DNA of 64,000 bases from Moorena producens. Lineage in GTDB: Bacteria > Cyanobacteriota > Cyanobacteriia > Cyanobacteriales > Coleofasciculaceae. The notes beneath the pieces were generated by a model. The model was given only the letters and a program-made list of their open reading frames with translations. It was not told where the DNA came from and searched no databases. Position 1 is the stretch's first letter. Each line of letters begins with the position of its first letter. Location of the stretch: assembly GCF_965240435.1 (NCBI RefSeq), contig NZ_CBDEKO010000003.1; one strand, written 5' to 3'. Shown piece by piece: positions 2,399-48,050 of this stretch. Made by a program: the position numbers and the translations under genes.

Positions 2399-3398
2399 TC
2401 AAACAGCTACTAACGGCTTCATCCGAATTTCCGTACCCGTGTATACCGGAATCCAGCCTTCAGTAGTGATCAAGTAGCGCACAGCTTTAACCCGTCGTGA
2501 TGGTGTCAGATAAAACCAATGTTCAGTATTCGCTGGGACATTAATGTACTCCTGAGGCTGCACACTCAACTCCATTTGGCTGCCATCAGGACGTACAAAC
2601 CCAAAAACCCCAACTCCTGCAAATATGTAGCGCACTTCATCGTCAGTATGGTAGTGACAATCCGTGAAGTACCCCAACCTGCTTAGCTGAGGTTGGGGCA
2701 AACCATTCTCAGTTCAATCAGGGACGGTCTTATTCGTCTTCAGGGCTTCCCGCTTCATCCGCCAATGCCTCAACCAGCGAACTGGAATTGGTCTTACTCA
2801 GCGTCCACAGGCAGACATCCGCCTTCCGCAGACGTATAACTTTTACGACAGACTTACCATGGAATTACAGCTCAATGGCTAACCAGCTGGGGCAAGTCTC
2901 TTCCCTGAGCTCCGCTAGTACTTTGTATACCTAATAGGTCATTAACAACGCGCTTGATATTTAGACGTTTTTTTAGGTAGCCTTTTAGTCGGTCAGGCGG
3001 GTCAGCAACCATCTTCATTATAACCTGAATCCTTTTGAGTTGCAAGTTATCGTTTCGCTATCCATCCCCACCTTGGAAGAAGGTGGGGATGAATAGCGAA
3101 TTTTGTTTCCTTTGGAAAGGAGCTTATCAAGATTAGGTATGTCTGGGTAAAGAACGATTAAGTCACGGGATTGATAGCCAGCGGTTTGCTTAAGTTGTTC
3201 AAAGTAGCTATCTAAAGCTTTCAGTACTTTCTCCTTTTCAATATCACTGAGGGTGTCTTGCTCTAGAAGGCGGTGAATTTCTGGGTTGTCCCCTACAGAC
3301 CAGTGATTTAGCTGAATCTTCAGAGGCGCTAATTCTTGGGCAATATCACTTAGCTCGGTATAGGTTGTACCATCTTCAAGTCGCAAAACCGCCATCAT
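2399..3398 (-). pseudogene. mtnD: Acireductone dioxygenase (cupin), split into an N-terminal ORF (3018..3398) and a C-terminal ORF (2399..2701) by a ~440-bp insertion
   Basis: N-terminal ORF MAVLRLEDGTTYTELSDIAQELAPLKIQ...YPDIPNLDKLL parallels B. subtilis MtnD up to the LDELL position, then diverges and stops. The C-terminal ORF starts at TTG and carries the ARD metal motif HYHTDDEVRYIFAGVGVFGF plus the cupin C-terminus TEGWIPVY. Confidence 0.6.
2676..3116. mobile_element. MITE-like, hairpin-ended, non-coding insertion inside mtnD
   Basis: The sequence between the two mtnD homology blocks has no ORF. A perfect hairpin CATCCCCACCTT-cttcc-AAGGTGGGGATG lies near one end (3056-3084). A second hairpin CCCCAACCT-cagctaagc-AGGTTGGGG lies at the other (2668-2694). 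The boundaries are approximate. Confidence 0.35.
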
Positions 3399-3639
3399 GT
3401 ACCTCCTGTTGGCTGTTCGATCTCCAAAGCCCTATATTATAATATTAAGCATTCATCTAGGTCAACCCACACCAGCCATCCAAACAGTATTATTAGGTAT
3501 CAAAAGGCATAAAACCCTTCCATAAAGGCTGTTTTAGAATAAAGTTCGCCCAGTTTTCCTCAGAAAGGTTAACATAAATTAATATAAGAAGCTAAATTCT
3601 ATATTTGCCACATCCTCGAATCTATGGAGGTAACAACGA

Positions 3640-5481
3640 GTGAATAAAAAGTGGAGAAACGCAGGGCTGTATGCACTCCTAGCCATAGTGGTGATCGCCC
3701 TTGGTACAGCATTTTTGGACAAACCGTCCCCAAGTCGAGATACGTGGCGGTACGACCAGCTGATTAGCCAAGTCGAGAGCGGCAAGGTGGAAACCGTTAG
3801 AATCAGTGCTGACCGCAGTAAAGCGATCGCGATCGCTCAAGATGGTCGTCAGGTAGAGGTCAATCTCCCCAATGACCCACAACTAATCAACCTTCTGAAT
3901 AATAACGGTGTAGATATTTCAGTTCTACCCCAGAGTGATGAAGGCTTCTGGTTCAAGACCTTAAGCAGCTTCTTCTTCCCGATTCTGCTCTTGGTGGGAT
4001 TGTTTCTATTACTGCGGCGTGCCCAGAATGGCCCAGGTTCTCAAGCCATGAACTTTGGCAAGTCTAAGGCTAGAGTCCAAATGGAACCCCAAACTCAGGT
4101 AACCTTTGGGGATGTGGCAGGTATTGAGCAAGCCAAGCTAGAGCTTAACGAAGTAGTAGACTTCCTCAAAAATGCTGACCGCTTCACTGCTATTGGGGCT
4201 AAAATTCCCAAGGGAGTCCTGCTCGTGGGACCTCCAGGAACCGGTAAAACTCTCTTAGCTCGTGCAGTAGCTGGGGAAGCAGGTGTTCCGTTTTTCTCCA
4301 TCTCTGGTTCTGAGTTTGTCGAGATGTTCGTAGGGGTTGGTGCTTCTCGGGTGCGAGACCTATTTGAGCAAGCCAAAAACAATGCTCCGTGTATTGTATT
4401 CATTGATGAAATCGATGCTGTGGGACGTCAGCGGGGTGCCGGTTTAGGCGGTGGTAATGATGAACGGGAGCAAACCCTCAACCAGTTGCTGACTGAAATG
4501 GATGGGTTTGAAGGTAATACCGGTATTATCATTATTGCTGCTACCAACCGCCCAGATGTTCTTGATGCTGCCCTACTACGCCCTGGTCGTTTTGATCGAC
4601 AGGTAGTAGTAGACCGTCCTGATTATTCCGGACGTTTGGAAATTCTCAACGTTCATGCTCGTGGGAAAACCCTGGCCAAAGATGTGGATCTCGAGAAGAT
4701 TGCCCGTCGGACCCCTGGTTTCACCGGAGCAGATTTATCCAACTTGCTCAATGAAGCAGCAATTTTGGCAGCCCGTCGCAACTTAACCGAAATCTCTATG
4801 GATGAGGTGAATGATGCCATTGACCGGGTACTTGCAGGGCCAGAGAAGAAAGACCGGGTAATGAGCGAGAAACGCAAAACCCTCGTAGCGTTTCACGAAG
4901 CAGGTCACGCCCTTGTGGGTGCCTTAATGCCTGATTATGACCCAGTGCAGAAAATTAGCATTATTCCTCGGGGTCGTGCTGGTGGTTTGACTTGGTTCAC
5001 CCCTAGCGAAGACCGGATGGATTCAGGCATGTTTTCCCGTTCTTACCTGCAAAATCAGATGGCAGTGGCCTTAGGTGGTCGGATTGCTGAAGAAATTATC
5101 TTCGGTGAAGAAGAAGTGACCACAGGTGCTTCCAATGACTTGCAACAGGTGACTCGGGTGGCACGGCAGATGGTGATGCGCTATGGTATGAGCGATCGCC
5201 TTGGCCCAGTAGCCCTAGGACGGCAGAATGGCAGTATGTTCCTAGGTCGGGATATTGCCTCAGACCGGGATTTCTCAGATGCCACAGCATCAACCATTGA
5301 TGAAGAGGTTCGCAAGCTAGTTGATGAAGCCTACGAACGGGCTAAGAATGTAATTCTTGGCAATAAGCACATCCTCGATAAGCTTGCTGAAATGCTGATT
5401 GATAAAGAAACCGTAGATGCTGAGGAACTCCAAGAGATTCTAAGCACTAACGATGTCAAGATGGCTGCGATCGCTCTTTAA
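3640..5481 (+). CDS. ftsH: ATP-dependent zinc metalloprotease FtsH
   Basis: 613 aa with N-terminal TM helices, Walker A GPPGTGKT, the SRH region, the zinc motif HEAGHA and the FtsH C-terminal domain. It starts at GTG. Confidence 0.95.
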
Positions 5482-5737
5482 CACAAGGCGATTTGGGCAA
5501 TCACCTAGGTAAATACAATGGTGAATACAATAGCCTCTAGCTATTAATCATCCTTAACAGGATACAGCAACAGGACAGTGTAACTAAGCACTGTCCTGTA
5601 TTATTTTGAGATTAAATCTTAAACAAGCATAACGATATAATTATTTCTGTTAAAAATTCCATAAGCTAATTTAAATAATAAGTCAGGGGATCCTATAATC
5701 CGACTGATTTTATTTGTGATAGTATAATCAAACCAAA

Positions 5738-5818
5738 GCTAGGGGTGCCTGAGCAACCAGGCTGAGATTACACCCTTAGAACCTGAGTCCGGTTAATACC
5801 GGCGGAGGGAAGCTGTGA
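5738..5818 (+). promoter_or_regulatory. TPP (thiamine pyrophosphate) riboswitch, THI element
   Basis: AGGGGTGCCTGAGCAACCAGGCTGAGATTACACCCTTAGAACCTGAGTCCGGTTAATACCGGCGGAGGGAAG carries the THI-box hallmarks (GGGGTGCC, CTGAGA, ACCTGA-CCGG-TAATACC). It sits directly 5' of thiC. A TATAAT lies at 5723-5728. Confidence 0.85.
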
Positions 5819-7207
<1,389 letters not shown>

Positions 7208-32575: not shown

Positions 32576-32621
32576 TGTATAGGGGTTTTAAATTGGGTGA
32601 GGTACAGATTCCTCGGTTTTA

Positions 32622-32773
32622 GGGAACAGGGAACAGGAAACAGGGAACAGGGAACAGGGAACAGGGAACACAGAACACAGAACACAGAACACAGAACACA
32701 GAACACAGAACACAGAACAGGGAACAGGGAACACAGAACAGAGAACACAGAACAGAGAACAGAGAATAGGGAA
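32622..32773. repeat. Heptamer tandem array (GGGAACA / CAGAACA, ~21 units)
   Basis: Direct reading. Confidence 0.9.
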
Positions 32774-33076: not shown

Positions 33077-33556
33077 TCAATTAATCGGTATCCACTGGGA
33101 AAACGTAGCCCCTTGACCACAATAGTTATTTTCCTCATCAATGAGATTCCAGACGATAACATCTGAAATCTGGAACCGTTTACCAGTGCTAGAAATGCGG
33201 ACACCTTGATAGTTGCTAATATAGCCCTGGCTTGTCACTTGGTTAAGCAGGCGTAAGCGCTCCTCCCTTTCCATTGGCTCAGCTGAATATTTCGAAGGCA
33301 TCTGAGTCAATTGGTTCCAATCCATTTCCCACAATTCTAAACCTTTCCGATTGCCATAGTTGTAAATGGGGTCTGATTCAGTGTTGTGAGAGAAGACGGC
33401 AAAGGGCGCTTCAAATAGTGCCTGTGCAATTTCGATAGGTGAGCCACTAGTATCGATTAGAGAACGCCCTGTCCAATGATGAAAGCTATTGATTAGACGT
33501 TGGCTCTGGCGAATTACTGCGTCTTGTTGCCAAGGAAATTGGATCTCAGTATTCAT
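33077..33556 (-). CDS. PAS-like / MEKHLA-like small sensor domain protein (tentative)
   Basis: 159 aa, called from overall impression only. It sits directly downstream of the tnpB-only IS. Confidence 0.3.
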   Translation of the reverse strand: MNTEIQFPWQQDAVIRQSQRLINSFHHWTGRSLIDTSGSPIEIAQALFEAPFAVFSHNTESDPIYNYGNRKGLELWEMDWNQLTQMPSKYSAEPMEREERLRLLNQVTSQGYISNYQGVRISSTGKRFQISDVIVWNLIDEENNYCGQGATFSQWIPIN

Positions 33557-33559
33557 CAG

Positions 33560-35160
33560 TTTATTATTGTGTACAGATTTATCACGCTGATGGAACTATA
33601 GTAATCGTGACGCTCCTACACTCTCCTAACGGGTGAGTGTAGGCTTCTAGCACTCCTTAGAGCTACTAGAACTTGCTTCAAGGTACTATTAGTTAGAGAA
33701 CTATCAACAACAGGATTCCCTCTACGCCGTTTTATAGTGGGGAACACGCCCAGCCCCACTCGTTTTAGGTTGATTGCGGCATTGATATCGCGATCGACCA
33801 TCAGCATTTCTTGCTCATCCCAATACTCGCGGATAGAGCAGTCAGTAAATACAAACTCGTCTCGATAGCTCAACAGTTGAGAGGTATAGACAGGGTTACA
33901 CTTTTTCGTTACTGCTCCAGCTTTTCCAGCTATGTAGGCCAGTATCTCAAAGAACTGTCCAAACCCTGCATCCGACCAAGACTTGTTTAATCCCGATTTT
34001 GCGGACTGTCCATTAGGCAAATATCCACCATTAGTATCTGGCTTGGGTTTATTTCGTTTCTTTAAACCAGAAAGGTTCAAATTTTCATAATAGAAAACTT
34101 TTTTTCCGGTTCTAACCAGGAGATGAGCTGTTTTATAGGCATGATCCTTTCGGCTCCTAGCGATCCGTTGATGTATTCTCCCTTCACGCGATTGCAGCTT
34201 CCTCCGAGCTTTACTCCCTTTTTTTCTGGCATTCTTTTTGGTTTCTACCTTTTTGATAACAGCCTGATTTTTGCGGTAAGACTTAAGTGAGGGTAGCTTA
34301 GTATTTTCAGATGTCGCCAGATAATCATCTCCGTACAGGACTGCATCCAATCCCATGGTATTATTCCAAGTAGGAGTAACACTTTCTGGTTTAAAAGTTG
34401 GGACTGTAGGATCCTCTAAACATAAGGTCGTGTACCAACCATCGGCTTTTTTGGTTATTAGGATATTTTTGAGTTTAAACCCGTCAGGTAACGGACGATG
34501 GAGTCGGACTTTAACCCACCCTTTGAGCTTTGTTATCTTCAGCCATATCCATTTATTCTCGATTCTGGCTACAGTAAAAGAGCCTTTACCTTCTATTTTT
34601 AAAGTTCTGTATCTAGCTTGATTTTTGAATCGAGGTTTTCCGCTACGAGTACCCGTTTTATCGCCCTTGATGAATCGATTGAAAGCTAGGTCTGCTCTTT
34701 TACATACGTCCTGTAAAGTATTTGCCGGAACTCGGGTAAAGTCCAGCAATTCCCATGAGTGGACAACTGTTACCAAATCTTTTTTCCAGATTGGCAGAAG
34801 CTTTTTTTGACTAAAGTAACTGGGATTATCTCTAAGCTCTGGGAGGTAAGTAATCAACGGACAAGAATTAACACCAGTACGGTTTTCATTCCACCACCGC
34901 CAGCGATCGCCTAACTGCCAGTTATACCAGTAACGACAAATTCGTAGCCAATCGTTTAGTTGTAATTTTTGTTGAGTAGTTGGATCAGCTCGGTATTGGT
35001 AGTTGAGCAGTATAACAATCACCTCTTGGCTTTTATTGCGCTTTCATATATATAGATAATAACAATCTTTCCGAAAAGTTTCAGCATCTGTGTTTACTCC
35101 CATAAAAAGCTTTTATGATTTACTTATGCCCGCGTTCCAGCTGAACTCCTGCAACTGCTT
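33560..35160 (-). mobile_element. IS200/IS605-family non-autonomous element (tnpB only, no tnpA)
   Basis: A single TnpB ORF wedged between the CHAT gene stop (35163) and the start of the 159-aa gene (33556). A hairpin CCTACACTC-tcctaacgg-GTGAGTGTAGG sits at the tnpB stop, which is a typical omega-RNA / right-end position. Confidence 0.65.
33616..35022 (-). CDS. tnpB: TnpB (IS200/IS605 OrfB, RuvC-like RNA-guided nuclease family)
   Basis: 468 aa. RuvC-I (GLDAVLY), RuvC-II (YYENLN) and RuvC-III (DRDINAAINL) are present. The zinc-ribbon position reads TSQLLSYRDEFVFTDCSIREY, so the canonical CxxC...CxxC is lost. Confidence 0.85.
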   Translation of the reverse strand: MIVILLNYQYRADPTTQQKLQLNDWLRICRYWYNWQLGDRWRWWNENRTGVNSCPLITYLPELRDNPSYFSQKKLLPIWKKDLVTVVHSWELLDFTRVPANTLQDVCKRADLAFNRFIKGDKTGTRSGKPRFKNQARYRTLKIEGKGSFTVARIENKWIWLKITKLKGWVKVRLHRPLPDGFKLKNILITKKADGWYTTLCLEDPTVPTFKPESVTPTWNNTMGLDAVLYGDDYLATSENTKLPSLKSYRKNQAVIKKVETKKNARKKGSKARRKLQSREGRIHQRIARSRKDHAYKTAHLLVRTGKKVFYYENLNLSGLKKRNKPKPDTNGGYLPNGQSAKSGLNKSWSDAGFGQFFEILAYIAGKAGAVTKKCNPVYTSQLLSYRDEFVFTDCSIREYWDEQEMLMVDRDINAAINLKRVGLGVFPTIKRRRGNPVVDSSLTNSTLKQVLVALRSARSLHSPVRRV

Positions 35161-35162
35161 GA

Positions 35163-38100
35163 TTACTCCGCTTCCCCAATCAGGGTAAAAGCTGCCCATT
35201 CCACTGGATTTGGGTACTGTTTAAGAGTCGTAAGCATCGCTTGACGCAGAGCAACTGCTTTGTCAGGTGTTTGTTGTAGCTGGCGATAGAATTCAATCAT
35301 CAGGTCAGCTGTGGAGTCATCAGGTACTTTCCAGAGGGAAACAACCACACTAGGTACACCAGCAGCAACTAAAGAACGGGATAATCCAATCACGCCATCA
35401 CTGGTAACTCTACCTCTACCAGTGTTGCAAGCGCTTAAAACTACTAACTCAGCACTAAGCTTGAGGTCGAGTATTTCACTAGCGCTGAGAAAACCTTTAT
35501 CTGTTTTAGTCGGAGCAAGGGCGATCGCTCCTGGTAAACCTAATCCCTGGAAGTCATTGAGTAAGCCGTGAGTAGCTAGATGTATGATCTTTGCCTTTGA
35601 CATTTGCTCAACTACTGCTGCCTTAGTGGCTTGATTGCCAATCAGGGCTTGAGTATTGAACATCTCAGCGATCGCTAGCGCTTCTGTTTCTGTTCCAGGA
35701 AGAGGGGGCAAACCTTGAGGCATAGTGGGATTACCAATTACTAGCATCTCTTCTCCTGAAACCTGTTGCCGTTGCTGGTTAGTTAAATCCAGCACCTGAA
35801 TCGAGGGAGCAGTGAGCATAGTATGTTTTTCGATCAGGTATTGACCAGAAGCGTCTTGTAGTGCTGGGAAAGGTACTAGAAACAAGGATTCGTGGGGAAT
35901 AAAGGTTACACGAGCTTCGGGATTAGTAGGTAAGAGTTCGGCAATTGGTTCAATGAGCAGTTGATGCAGTTGTTTTAATCGTTCAGTTTGACCAGCTCTC
36001 TCTGTTTTAGTCAATCTTTCACTGGGAACTAAATCAACTAGGGATGGGCTTCTTCTGAAAAAAATCGATTTACGAGTGATACCAACCAATTTGTCAAGAG
36101 ATGTATCCAGATTAGTTAAATCAACCTGACGAAAAGCGATTTTACCTGTAGGTTTAATTACCCAAATGTAAAGCTCTTTGTCTTGAAGTTGCCGCACACC
36201 TTGGGCTTCGACAACTTCTTTGATAATCGAGTATAAAACTATTGTCGAGTTTTGTTTTTCAGTAATTTTTTTAATTTGTTTGATCTTCGGAGGAGCAATC
36301 GGTTTGTGATTTTTGAGGTTTGGTTCAGACTCTGATAAACCTCTCGCTAATAGTTCAACAAAGGCTCTTGCTCGTCCTCTTTCAGTAATTTCTAGGGCTT
36401 GATTGAATTGTTTTCGTTCTACTAAATACTCTTGTAAAGTGCTATAAGTTGTTTCATGAGTTTCAAATATTGATACTCTCTCAAGGTCATTGCTGCCTAA
36501 GTTTGACCGCAAAGACTCCCAAATTTCAATGGCAGCAAAGAGAGCCTCATTTGCTTCTTGAGGATTTCCGGCTTGATAGAGAGCATCACCTAAGTTACTC
36601 AAAGCTCGTCCCTTGGCGTGGCGATCACCTAGTTGCTTGGCAATTTCTAAACTCTGGCGTTGGTAGTTTACTGCTTGGTTGTAGTCTTCTAGAGCATGGT
36701 AAATTATTCCCAAATTTTCTAGGGCTACTAACTCTCCATAGTTATCTTGCAGTTTTTGTGCGATCGCTAAACTCTGCTGAGAGTATTCAATTGCTTGGTT
36801 ATAGTCGGTCAGAGTATAGTACACCAAGCTCAAATTAGATAATGCTCTTGCCTTTCCAGGTAGGTTATCGGATGTTTTAGCGATCGCTAAACTTTTTTCT
36901 TTGTATTCAAGTGCTTTGGTATATTCCTTCTTAGCGTAGTAAGCTAATCCGATATTGCTTACTATATTCCTTTCCCACTCAGACTCATTGGTTGAGTTTA
37001 ATAGTTCTAGACCCTGTTTATAGTATTCAATAGCTTTGTCATAGTTTCCTATTGCGCCATAAGCGGCTCCTAAGCCACTTAATGCTTGCCTTTTTCCTAT
37101 TAAGTTTTTCTCTGATTTGGCAATAGTAAAATGCTGTTTATGATAGTCTAGAGCTTTGCCATAGTCTCCCAAGATATAGTGAGTAACTCCGAGGTTATGT
37201 AGAGCTTTTACTTCTCGCAATTGATCGCCAAATTTTCGTGCAAATTCTAAGTTTTTATGATAGCATTCGGCAGCTTGAGTGTAATCTTTAGCAGCCACTT
37301 GTAAGGAAAATCCTTGAGAATTTATGAGTAATTGTTCTTCTTCCAGACACTCTGTAATTTCCAGTACCAGGATTGTCAGTCGTTCTAGTTCAATTGCTTG
37401 AGTCTTGTTTGACCTCTTGCTCTGATTGACCGCCAAATCTGATCGATTAACCTGGGTTGGCAAGGCAGAGTTTTGATGGTCTGACCTTGGTGATGGTGTT
37501 GTTGGGGAAGAATTGGGAGGATTTCCATAATTTACAGGTGCAGGAATTACTCTTATTGGAGGTTCAGGTGGTAGTAGTGGTGGCTCTAGATCTAAAAAAG
37601 GTGGAGCTTCAGGTGCTAGTAAGACTTGAGATTCTGGACTTTGTATAGTGATATTCTGGTTTCTGAAACCTAGAATGGAAGTAATAGTAGAAGTAGCAGT
37701 AACATTTTCTGCATTGATGTCACGACCAGCAACAAGAGTAACGTTGCCACTCTCACCATTACTACTAGCAGCATTTATATCCCCAGCATTAATACTTCCC
37801 TCGGTAGCGAATAATTGAACCTCTCCTCCTTTACCTTCCACAGAGGAAGAATCAACTACCCCAGCACTAGTATCAATACTTCCTCTATCGCTAACGGCAG
37901 TAATATCACCACCATTACCATTATTACTGGAAGCATTGAGACTCCCGGTAGTGATATTACCTTCTGCTCTCAGGTCAATATTTCCACTATCACCACTTAC
38001 CGCCGTTGAATCCAGTGTGCCACTACTAGTATCAATTTCTCCTTGTCTACTATTGAGGAAAATTCTGCCACCATCGGAAGTAATTGATGCTGTCCGAAGA

Positions 38101-46439: not shown

Positions 46440-48050
46440 TCACTTCGTTGATCAATCCAGTCATGAAGCTTCCACCACCTGGCTATCGCCGTTCGCGTAG
46501 CGTGGCGATAGCCAGGTGGTGGTGTCTTATACTAACTTATAACTACCCCTAGTCCATAAGTCACACAAGCAAGCCCAGCTTCTAGGCGGTCGTCGAGATC
46601 TTTTGCTGGAACGACCCTCACTGTCATTTCTGCGAGTGAGTTTAAACACACCTCTAGCACCGATGTTGTAAGCGCCGTTTAAGTCTGCATTAAACCGCTT
46701 ACCTGAAGGGAAGGTTGCCAAAGAGTATTTTTTAGAATTTCTCTTAACCGTACCAGAGCCATCAAAAGCCAATTTTGAAGTATAAGCCGCAACGACTTCT
46801 ATCACTTTTCCACCCAATTCAGCCCATTTCATTTCTGTGAAGTCGCGGATTTTTGCCTTGAGCCATCCGTGGAATCTTTGTTTTAAATTAGACCGCTTTC
46901 GTCCACCTTTTGGCTTCCACCCTTTAAGATTCTCGAATACAATGGCTTCCGAGTTGAACTTTTCAGCAATTTCAACAATCCCCTTGGAAACAATATGGCC
47001 AATTTGGTTATTGATTCTTTGGCATTTTTGATAAGTTTTGGAGCAAAAACCTTTATGTAGTTTTCCTCCTTTTCCCATCGTCTTCGATGCTCTTGCTGAT
47101 ACGGACTTTAGTCGTTTGTCCCTGCGGTCTATGTCTCTTCCAAGATGAATAAAATCACGATGGATTACAGTGCCACTATGGGTTACAACTGCTACGGTAG
47201 CGGTAGTATTAATCCCTAAATCTACCGCAGTTATGTTAGCCTCTGGCTTGCGTTTTTCTGGTTTGCAAGTAAACGGAACAGACAGATGACAGTACCTATC
47301 GTTAAAAATCAACGAAGGGGACATCATTTTGTTTGTAGCTATCTTATGACGCTCTCTTAGTCCAGTTATTTGAACTGTAGTCCAAACCCAATCCTTGCCG
47401 TTAAAAACTTTGATTTCGACTTGATCAAAGCCATGTAGTTTATAGCATTGACCCTTGTACAGAGCTGGATAGCAGCCAGTATCAGCGTTTAACCTTGGTG
47501 GCTTGCTATCTTTTCTTTTTCGGACACCAGACTGCCATTCACGGTATCGAGTCACATAACTACTAACCTGCCCAGCGGCAAAGGCGATTGCTGATCGGCG
47601 ATAATAACTGGGAAATTTATAAAAAGCTTTATTGAATTGAGGGTATTTAATTAAGGCTCGCTTGGCCGTCTTATGCATCAGACGCTCGACAGCAGGAGTT
47701 AACTGATCTGCTGTTAAACAACCTAACTCAGACCAATGAGTGTAAATCACACCAAGCAAGTACCGACAAGCGCGGCGATAAACCTTAACCGTTTCCCCAA
47801 ATAGTAGTTTTTGCTCGGAAGTTGGGTTAAGTCGCCACTTGTCTGTTCTTATGACCTTGGTCGGTGTTTTCACGCTTTCTAATAAACTCGTTTATAGTTA
47901 ATATTTTAGCTCACAAAAGGTAATACGGCAATCAAGTAATTAATGTTCCAGGTTTTAAAGTTGGTATCAGCGTGGAGTAACCCCCACCTGAACCTTCGCG
48001 CAGCGTGGCCGTAGGCCAGGTGGGGGAATGCGTCTCACGGCTTGTTCAAG
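46440..48050 (-). mobile_element. IS200/IS605-family non-autonomous element (tnpB only), with subterminal hairpins at both ends
   Basis: Right-end hairpin CACCACCTGGCTATCGCC-gttcgcgtagcgt-GGCGATAGCCAGGTGGTG at 46462-46512. Left-end hairpin CCCCCACCTG...CAGGTGGGGG with a similar TTCGCGCAGCGTGGC loop at 47978-48030. Confidence 0.7.
46527..47873 (-). CDS. tnpB: TnpB (IS200/IS605 OrfB family)
   Basis: 448 aa. RuvC-I AVDLGI, RuvC-II IVFENL, RuvC-III NADLNGAYNIG. The zinc-finger position (YTSKLAFDGSGTVKRN...SLATFPSGKRF) has no cysteines. Confidence 0.85.
   Translation of the reverse strand: MKTPTKVIRTDKWRLNPTSEQKLLFGETVKVYRRACRYLLGVIYTHWSELGCLTADQLTPAVERLMHKTAKRALIKYPQFNKAFYKFPSYYRRSAIAFAAGQVSSYVTRYREWQSGVRKRKDSKPPRLNADTGCYPALYKGQCYKLHGFDQVEIKVFNGKDWVWTTVQITGLRERHKIATNKMMSPSLIFNDRYCHLSVPFTCKPEKRKPEANITAVDLGINTTATVAVVTHSGTVIHRDFIHLGRDIDRRDKRLKSVSARASKTMGKGGKLHKGFCSKTYQKCQRINNQIGHIVSKGIVEIAEKFNSEAIVFENLKGWKPKGGRKRSNLKQRFHGWLKAKIRDFTEMKWAELGGKVIEVVAAYTSKLAFDGSGTVKRNSKKYSLATFPSGKRFNADLNGAYNIGARGVFKLTRRNDSEGRSSKRSRRPPRSWACLCDLWTRGSYKLV

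Follow-up and report, generated by a model that had tools for sequence, protein, structure and literature searches.

A tnpB gene and the mobile element that carries it were analyzed in a stretch of 64,000 nucleotides from the cyanobacterium Moorena producens (assembly GCF_965240435.1, contig NZ_CBDEKO010000003.1), the whole of which is referred to here as the window. The tnpB open reading frame (ORF) occupies positions 33616-35022 of the minus strand. The locus is very probably a copy of an insertion sequence (IS) of the IS200/IS605 type (IS605 group) that is spread throughout the cyanobacteria, and this copy would have lost tnpA and the left end while retaining tnpB and the right end intact. 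The features on which the description rests are given below, in the direction of transcription.

35023-35056, minus strand: 5' leader common to the window copy and its Moorena paralogue, a remnant of the tnpA-tnpB intergenic region (Shine-Dalgarno, -10-like TATATA), with the homology boundary at about 35056.
33616-35022, minus strand: tnpB ORF, 468 codons starting from GTG 35022; the start position canonical for the family is the ATA at 35011-35013, with an AAGAGG Shine-Dalgarno before it.
34345-34347, minus strand: RuvC-I catalytic aspartate D226 (GLDAV), which does not vary in the family alignments and falls on the catalytic Asp of ISDra2-type TnpB.
34084-34086, minus strand: RuvC-II catalytic glutamate E313 (YYENLNL) at the canonical position, invariant; the profile pairs vhEDLN with avEDLN of ISDra2-like TnpB.
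33787-33888, minus strand: TNB segment Y379-D412 (YTSQLLSYRDEFVFTDCSIREYWDEQEMLMVDRD) in place of CxxC...CxxC, with no His and a single, non-ligand Cys.
33787-33789, minus strand: RuvC-III catalytic aspartate D412 (VDRDINAA), invariant and aligned to hDRDeNAA.
33607-33762, minus strand: predicted omega-RNA scaffold, nearly all of it inside the 3' coding region of tnpB, ending at the right end of the transposon.
33736-33760, minus strand: P1 hairpin (AGUGGGG / CCCCACU) in the codons for RVGLGVFPT; 98.7% of cells paired, with covarying third-position changes.
33675-33727, minus strand: long-range junction helix (33726-33727 with 33675-33676; 33719-33721 with 33681-33683) enclosing P2 (33692-33711).
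33645-33671, minus strand: P3 hairpin (UUCUAG...CUAGAA); 93.8% of cells paired, six pairs changed on both sides, many G-U pairs.
33615-33643, minus strand: P4 terminal hairpin, CCUACACUC / GAGUGUAGG, including the stop codon at 33616-33618; it doubles as the subterminal hairpin at the right end of the IS.
33607-33614, minus strand: 3' tail AGCGUCAC, in which the family always has TCAC; the element's final base is 33607.
33587-33606, minus strand: presumptive guide GAUUACUAUAGUUCCAUCAG in the flanking DNA, its position deduced from the right-end boundary and its length of 20 nt assumed by analogy with ISDra2.

Domain content, catalytic triad, fold and RNA place the window protein in the TnpB family, the zinc finger being the only typical feature that it lacks. 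Three Pfam domains score above the gathering threshold (PF12323 HTH_OrfB_IS605, 40.6 bits; PF01385 OrfB_IS605, 39.0 bits; PF07282 Cas12f1-like_TNB, 32.3 bits), and the NCBIfam model NF040570 ("RNA-guided endonuclease TnpB family") gives 171.3 bits with a cutoff of 100. The protein aligns with ISDra2-type TnpB structures by phmmer as well as by a profile of 98 family sequences. When an AlphaFold2 model built from the same 98-sequence alignment (mean pLDDT 69.5) was used as a Foldseek query, the top match was to ISDra2 TnpB (8h1j_A, E 1.4e-18), 8iaz_A was matched at E 6e-18, and the best matches also included ISFba1 TnpB and Cas12f. The three RuvC motifs, which an earlier note on this DNA had read as complete, do form an intact D-E-D triad (D226, E313, D412) that is invariant in the family alignments of 31 (A1) and 98 (A2) sequences. 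No record identical to the protein was found by exact-protein lookup; a 99% variant (P0001) corresponds to the same locus in M. producens PAL (CP017599.1).

The zinc ligands of ISDra2 TnpB are C331, C334, C351, and C354 (PMC10097598). Two independent alignments (phmmer and the 98-sequence profile) place C351 and C354 on D402 and E405 of the window protein, and C331 and C334 fall within L384-D388, so that the former ligand positions are occupied by L384 or S385, R387 or D388, D402, and E405, with neither Cys nor His at any of the four. A hand alignment with a relative of 47% identity sets the cysteines of that protein on L384, R387, D402, and Q404/E405. The absence of the canonical cysteines, as claimed in the earlier note, is thus upheld; its description of the ribbon as degenerate is not, since the segment holds a strongly conserved replacement motif, YTSQLLxYRDEFVFTDCxIRxYWDxxExLxVDRDINA. 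The motif occurs in every one of the 117 clusters in which the segment was located, among the 120 closest 90%-identity clusters (62-99% identity), the motif search having missed the segment in three. The cysteines are also missing from full-length 50%-identity representatives at 51-67% identity, recovered by exhaustive search, and the next relatives, at 43-47% identity, retain CxxC/CxC pairs. Members of the clade occur in Nostocales, Moorena, Symploca, Crocosphaera, Prochloron, Xenococcus, and other cyanobacteria, and 440 stretches encoding relatives were found in a scan of species-representative genomes. The ratio of nonsynonymous to synonymous divergence (dN/dS) among family pairs is 0.06-0.11; the zinc-free protein is therefore under normal purifying selection. 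Judged from these comparisons, the loss of the cysteines is a trait of the whole clade and not a sign of decay in the window copy, the replacement motif having become fixed in this cyanobacterial lineage.

It would be very improbable that the cysteines had only shifted, or had been replaced by His, in a domain that still binds zinc. Such a domain might be sought around C395, the one conserved Cys, which lies between the two former CxxC positions, but residues 379-412 hold this single Cys and no His, the residue aligns to a Leu of ISDra2-type TnpB, and G, S, R, or L takes its place in some family members; moreover, it is D402 and E405 that both alignments put on C351 and C354. The alignment check for shifted cysteines proposed in the earlier note is answered by the same positions. 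A network of Arg, Asp, and Glu residues together with hydrophobic packing may instead hold the zinc-free TNB fold.

The predicted omega-RNA scaffold (33762-33607, minus strand) is 156 nt long and has six helices, the two-part junction helix being counted as two (P1, junction x2, P2, P3, P4). It was assessed in an alignment of the final 215 nt of 67 distinct elements. Standard pairs fill 91.8% of the cells of its 43 pairs, as compared with 40-48% in controls that slide the 3' partners 1-3 columns along, and compensatory (both-side) changes are present in 26 of the 43. The covariation score is 0.400 vs. 0.08-0.11 after sliding and 0.16 after shuffling (0 of 500 shuffles reach 0.400). A covariance model (R1; 160 model positions) built from 63 non-Moorena sequences matches the window once, at 33762-33607 and over model positions 1-160 (149.5 bits, E 6e-45); full-length family matches score about 98-176 bits, mostly 118-176, and the Moorena paralogue scores 144. 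No further scaffold copies were found by R1 within the window, and a search of the locus against Rfam, at the gathering threshold and at E up to 10, gave noise matches and no omega-RNA, IS605-orfB, or RAGATH family. The minimum-free-energy fold of the single sequence recovers P3 and P4, with z = -1.9 for the whole fold. On this comparative evidence the predicted scaffold at the 3' end of tnpB is well supported, and the omega-RNA candidate put forward in the earlier note, with a comparison to covariance models as the proposed check, is borne out by the bit score and the compensatory pairs. The hairpin that the note had drawn over the stop codon (CCTACACTC/GAGTGTAGG, 33635-33643 / 33615-33623) is likewise real and corresponds to the terminal stem P4; together with the AAAAGCTTTT palindrome at 35105-35114 it makes up the only two inverted repeats of at least 9 nt within 60 nt in the interval 33500-35250.

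Individual helices show how the RNA and the protein share this sequence. In P1, two pairs change type across the family (CG 27, AU 25, UA 10, and UA 29, GC 26, CG 11), the second of them linking the third position of a Val codon with the third position of a Pro codon. The many G-U pairs in P3 argue for selection on RNA of the tnpB strand. The first junction pair is G-C in the window and C-G in the family, and the compensatory change also produces the replacement E450Q, a case in which RNA structure takes precedence over protein conservation within a dual-coding region. In P4, 94.7% of the cells are paired and 9 of the 12 pairs show compensatory changes; this stem can act both as the DNA hairpin recognized by TnpA and as the last stem of the RNA.

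The right end of the element is sharply defined. Homology to the paralogues and to 75 family members stops exactly after ...GTGTAGGAGCGTCAC, at window position 33607 and 9 nt past the stop codon. The 75 family loci terminate at this side in ...GGTGTAGGTAGTTCAC, or in GGAGCGTCAC for Moorena and Prochloron, and unrelated DNA follows. Where one genome holds several copies at 99-100% identity, these diverge directly after TCAC, a tetranucleotide that is invariant at the right end of 67 sequences. The window copy has the same terminus, the P4 hairpin followed by ...TCAC at 33607. A spacer of 50 nt of non-element DNA separates it from the ATG (33556) of a 159-aa MEKHLA-domain gene; the element therefore ends about 50 nt earlier than had been supposed, when it was thought to extend some 60 nt past the stop and to abut that gene.

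At the other side, homology to the sole Moorena paralogue lineage (L002/L003/L005, mutually orthologous and 87% identical to the window copy) runs from about 35056 to exactly 33607, and its 5' boundary falls within the tnpA-tnpB spacer of complete elements. Neither a left end nor a target-adjacent motif (TAM) was found upstream of the window copy, the interval 35057-35165 being dissimilar to the left ends of the family, and no tnpA was found within the 64 kb (best tblastn match E 4.8), as the earlier note had stated. With no TnpA in the window and no left end, the copy is probably immobile. Tandem arrays of a CCATCTCC octamer, variable in length, immediately precede the second tnpB copy of Moorena (L002 3830-3940, L005 3820-3950, L003 60-110).

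The relatives of the window copy include complete and mobile elements. A divergently transcribed Y1 tnpA lies directly upstream of tnpB in approximately 32 of 80 related loci (about 40%), and the family TnpA scores 141 bits with PF01797 and 127.7 bits with NF033573. Complete elements measure about 2.0 kb, and some genomes hold two of them, 100% identical but inserted at different sites (L006/L069, L016/L018, L035/L037); L006, at 3383-5407, is an intact element of Tolypothrix. Their left junction is always TTAGC, TTTAGC, or TCAGC followed by the left-end hairpin, and by analogy with IS608 and ISDra2 TTAGC/TCAGC is the presumptive target or TAM of the family. The element had been regarded as a tnpB-only IS; the family is an IS605-group IS with a Y1 TnpA, of which the window copy is a remnant without tnpA and left end. 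Three family copies of 1.82 kb from Scytonema (L021, L022, and L025; HK-05 chromosome and plasmid, and NIES-4073), 99.2-99.7% identical, keep the left end and give no TnpA match; they are presumably tnpA-deleted derivatives mobilized in trans.

The start of tnpB is variable in the family. At the canonical position, 54 members have ATG (20), TTG (13), GTG (9), ACG (8), ATT (3), or ATA (1), so that 12 of the 54 (22%) have ACG, ATT, or ATA downstream of a conserved AAGGAGGTGAT Shine-Dalgarno. A weak or non-NTG start seems habitual in the family and possibly limits the translation of TnpB.

A working scheme for complete members can be proposed from the established biology of IS608 and ISDra2. The Y1 TnpA would excise and insert the top strand via the subterminal hairpins of the left and right ends, insertion taking place 3' of TTAGC/TCAGC. 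The 3' part of the tnpB transcript would fold into an omega-RNA of about 160 nt whose last hairpin is the right-end hairpin and which would extend into the flank by an assumed 16-20 nt, serving as guide. TnpB and its omega-RNA would then cut the joint of TAM and flank left by excision, and recombination would restore the element. In this scheme the window copy would most likely represent an idle yet intact nuclease-RNA pair kept at a fixed site in Moorena.

M. producens PAL (CP017599.1, L107) and M. bouillonii PNG (L001) share this insertion with the window. Among the three Moorena genomes the element differs at 2-6 of 1450 positions, with no synonymous difference in 318 synonymous sites, and the flanking CHAT and MEKHLA genes show a proportion of synonymous differences (pS) of 0.024-0.099; whichever two of the genomes are compared, divergence within the element is 5-10 times lower than in its flanks. 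Between PAL and PNG the tract of low divergence extends from about 35156 to 33575, near the edges of the element; among the Moorena genomes such a tract ends 13-33 nt beyond the right end. The locus is a mosaic of blocks of 82-100% identity, and a chance recombination tract is therefore possible; an alternative would be a recent spread of the element between Moorena lineages. As to the protein, dN/dS between the window copy and the Moorena paralogue is 0.157, the orthologues of that tnpA-less paralogue give 0.15-0.18, and the dN of the window copy to outgroups is no higher than that of the paralogue. Between the CHAT gene and the element, M. bouillonii carries 45 additional nt whose ends form an inverted repeat (ATTCCTCTCACG...CGTGAGAGGAAT; L001 3845-3889, window 35133/35134), an insertion that resembles a miniature palindromic element.

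The spacer upstream of the MEKHLA gene contains the presumptive guide (33606 to about 33587), in agreement with the earlier expectation that the guide of an active TnpB would read into the promoter region of the 159-aa gene. A search of the window with the guide 16-mer, allowing up to three mismatches, found the locus itself and nothing else. In 2.9 million viral contigs the 16-mer has 26 exact matches, of which none follows TTAGC/TCAGC and none extends by more than 1 nt; by the report's own estimate, made without an expected count from the tool, they look like chance matches. No natural, TAM-flanked target for the guide of the window copy was found in the window or in the viral contigs. Four substitutions within 8 nt (window 33586-33593) distinguish the window from both other Moorena genomes and correspond to positions 14-21 of the presumptive guide, the range in which ISDra2 TnpB cleaves a target.

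Several observations weigh against reading the locus as an immobile IS605-group copy with a sound TnpB and RNA. The canonical start is a weak ATA, two P2 pairs are non-canonical, five changes in the window lineage affect positions that are at least 90% conserved, the window-specific replacements Y13D, F41W, and G90W affect near-invariant sites, and the six substitutions among the three Moorena genomes are all nonsynonymous, which is compatible with a recent relaxation of selection. In addition, the pLDDT of the AlphaFold model is below 50 at residues 378-398 and 404-407, exactly the TNB region where we infer a zinc-free packing; the covariation of P4 could be due not to an RNA but to the DNA hairpin on which TnpA acts; and alignment alone cannot split the TAM from the first bases of the left end. 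The start codon, the disrupted P2 pairs, the replacements at near-invariant sites, and the ratio of six nonsynonymous to no synonymous differences, along with the missing tnpA and left end, would also fit a functionally dead relic whose ORF and RNA are intact for lack of time and are not used; in SIO3I8/SIO3I6, a 96-nt insertion and a C-terminal frameshift in the orthologue of the other Moorena copy point the same way. This explanation deserves consideration but is the less likely one. A dead gene would have kept 468 codons with every catalytic residue, a dN/dS of 0.157 with the paralogue, an outgroup dN no higher than the paralogue's, and an omega-RNA whose score is inside the family range and above that of the paralogue; weak starts such as ACG, ATT, or ATA are shared by 22% of the family, and the 6:0 ratio is not significant relative to neutrality (P about 0.2, the report's own calculation).

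At the opposite extreme, the host might keep the gene as a domesticated TnpB with a fixed guide, acting at or near the MEKHLA gene or at another target, or spreading by homing-like gene conversion. The shared insertion in three genomes, the paucity of differences within the element relative to its flanks, the near coincidence of the PAL/PNG tract with the element, and the cluster of substitutions in the guide are what such a role might produce. The RuvC triad is intact, however, unlike that of the known repressor derivatives (TldR), a second match to the guide is missing from the window, the left junction shows no TTAGC/TCAGC, which implies an empty allele without the family TAM, and the mosaic structure of the locus leaves room for a tract arisen by chance; domestication is accordingly considered quite improbable. 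Only slightly better odds, still those of an unlikely proposition, are given to two readings taken jointly, namely that the relatives form a zinc-independent TnpB clade in which a network of Arg387, Asp388, Asp402, and Glu405 replaces the Cys4-Zn site with nuclease and homing functions kept, and that the near lack of synonymous divergence of the element in Moorena is the footprint of homing by TnpB and its omega-RNA. If true, they would define for the first time how a TNB domain dispenses with zinc in an IS605 lineage that transposes actively, and would provide a case of a stranded element spreading between lineages by recombination without a transposase.

The preferred reading thus remains that of a truncated IS605-group copy with tnpB and right end intact. 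The zinc-finger-less element is ordinary in kind and does not constitute a new system, and the window copy itself, which is immobile and just one of the hundreds of loci that make up the family, is of low practical value; what is useful is the replacement at the level of the clade and the mapped scaffold. If active, the members of the clade would be compact nucleases (about 460 aa) with a fold independent of a Cys4 zinc site, and would bear on the purpose of the zinc finger in TnpB and Cas12, the function of which has been called unclear (Altae-Tran 2023, PMC10691335). The 160-nt scaffold with its mapped helices represents material for engineering, and the dual-coding 3' end illustrates how RNA structure shapes protein sequence (third-position covariation in RVGLG.FPT; E450Q).

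The only other TnpB of the window is encoded at 46527-47873 (minus strand; 448 aa; Pfam TNB and OrfB_IS605) and belongs to another clade. The designation of the present gene as copy 1 had implied a second copy; the two proteins are essentially dissimilar, and no relationship between them is detectable (best local BLASTP 25 bits over 38 aa). This second TnpB is also without CxxC pairs (AAYTSKLAFDGSGTVKRNSKKYSLATFPSGKRFNADLNGAYNIG), scores 86.8 bits with NF040570, below the cutoff, and reads NADxN at RuvC-III, the motif of a TnpB clade described as "derived" (Altae-Tran 2023, PMC10691335). Elsewhere in the window, a TPP riboswitch (RF00059, 71.7 bits) is found at 5731-5827 of the plus strand, directly upstream of a 457-aa ORF (5834-7207), and about 20 tandem GAACAGA heptamers with a super-period of 21 nt occupy 32621-32773, in the spacer between the MEKHLA gene and a histidine kinase, where they give spurious low-complexity ORFs on both strands.

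Among known systems, TldR and Cas12k resemble the locus in that a TnpB-derived protein resides at one fixed site, without a transposase, beside a host gene and with a fixed guide. They differ in that the window protein has an intact RuvC triad, which rules out a nuclease-dead repressor of the TldR type, and in that the only guide match found is the flank of the element itself. Of the two, only Cas12k appears among the solved structures, as a weak Foldseek match (8axb, E 7e-6, rank 47), and no Cas12k or TldR entries were found in the phmmer sequence search with the window protein.

Pro-Fanzors are TnpBs associated with IS607 that have DPG in RuvC-I, a relocated Glu, and a retained CxxC...CxxC (Yoon et al., 2023, PMC10711439). 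The window protein has in common with the pro-Fanzor/Fanzor group that it belongs to the TnpB family and comes from a cyanobacterium, whereas it has GLDAV, a Glu at the canonical EDLN/ENLN position, relatives with a Y1 TnpA, and no CxxC; the link was rejected on these grounds, and with it the relevance to Fanzor evolution that the earlier note had suggested. The earlier note also called zinc-finger-less TnpB lineages under-described; loss of the zinc finger in large TnpB branches has already been reported (Altae-Tran 2023, PMC10691335). One of these, the RIIIr-4 clade, combines the loss with a rearranged RuvC-III (Altae-Tran 2023, PMC10691335). The reported zinc-finger-less branches and the present clade are alike in having lost the C4 site as a lineage-wide trait in catalytically plausible TnpBs; the window protein differs in its canonical RuvC-III, VDRDINAA (DRD.NAA), the alignment of which to hDRDeNAA rules out membership in RIIIr-4.

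The closest counterpart is the ISDra2/IS608 type. Differences from it include the missing C4 zinc finger, a RuvC-I motif of D-A-V in place of D-hydrophobic-G, a conserved stretch of some 15-20 aa (KPKPDTNGGYLPNGQSAKSG) inserted after the catalytic Glu, a tnpA that is divergent in the relatives (IS605/IS606 layout) and absent from the window copy, and a scaffold outside every Rfam family. Shared features are the domain order HTH/WED-REC-RuvC-TNB with the D-E-D triad, an omega-RNA (reRNA) that overlaps tnpB at its 3' end, terminates with the right end, and takes its guide from the flank, and, in the relatives of the window copy, the Y1 TnpA, the left-end and right-end hairpins, the conserved pentanucleotide at the left junction, and the invariant tetranucleotide TCAC at the right end. 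As far as can be read from sequence, the anatomy of the locus matches that of an ISDra2/IS608-type TnpB-omega-RNA module with predicted nuclease activity.

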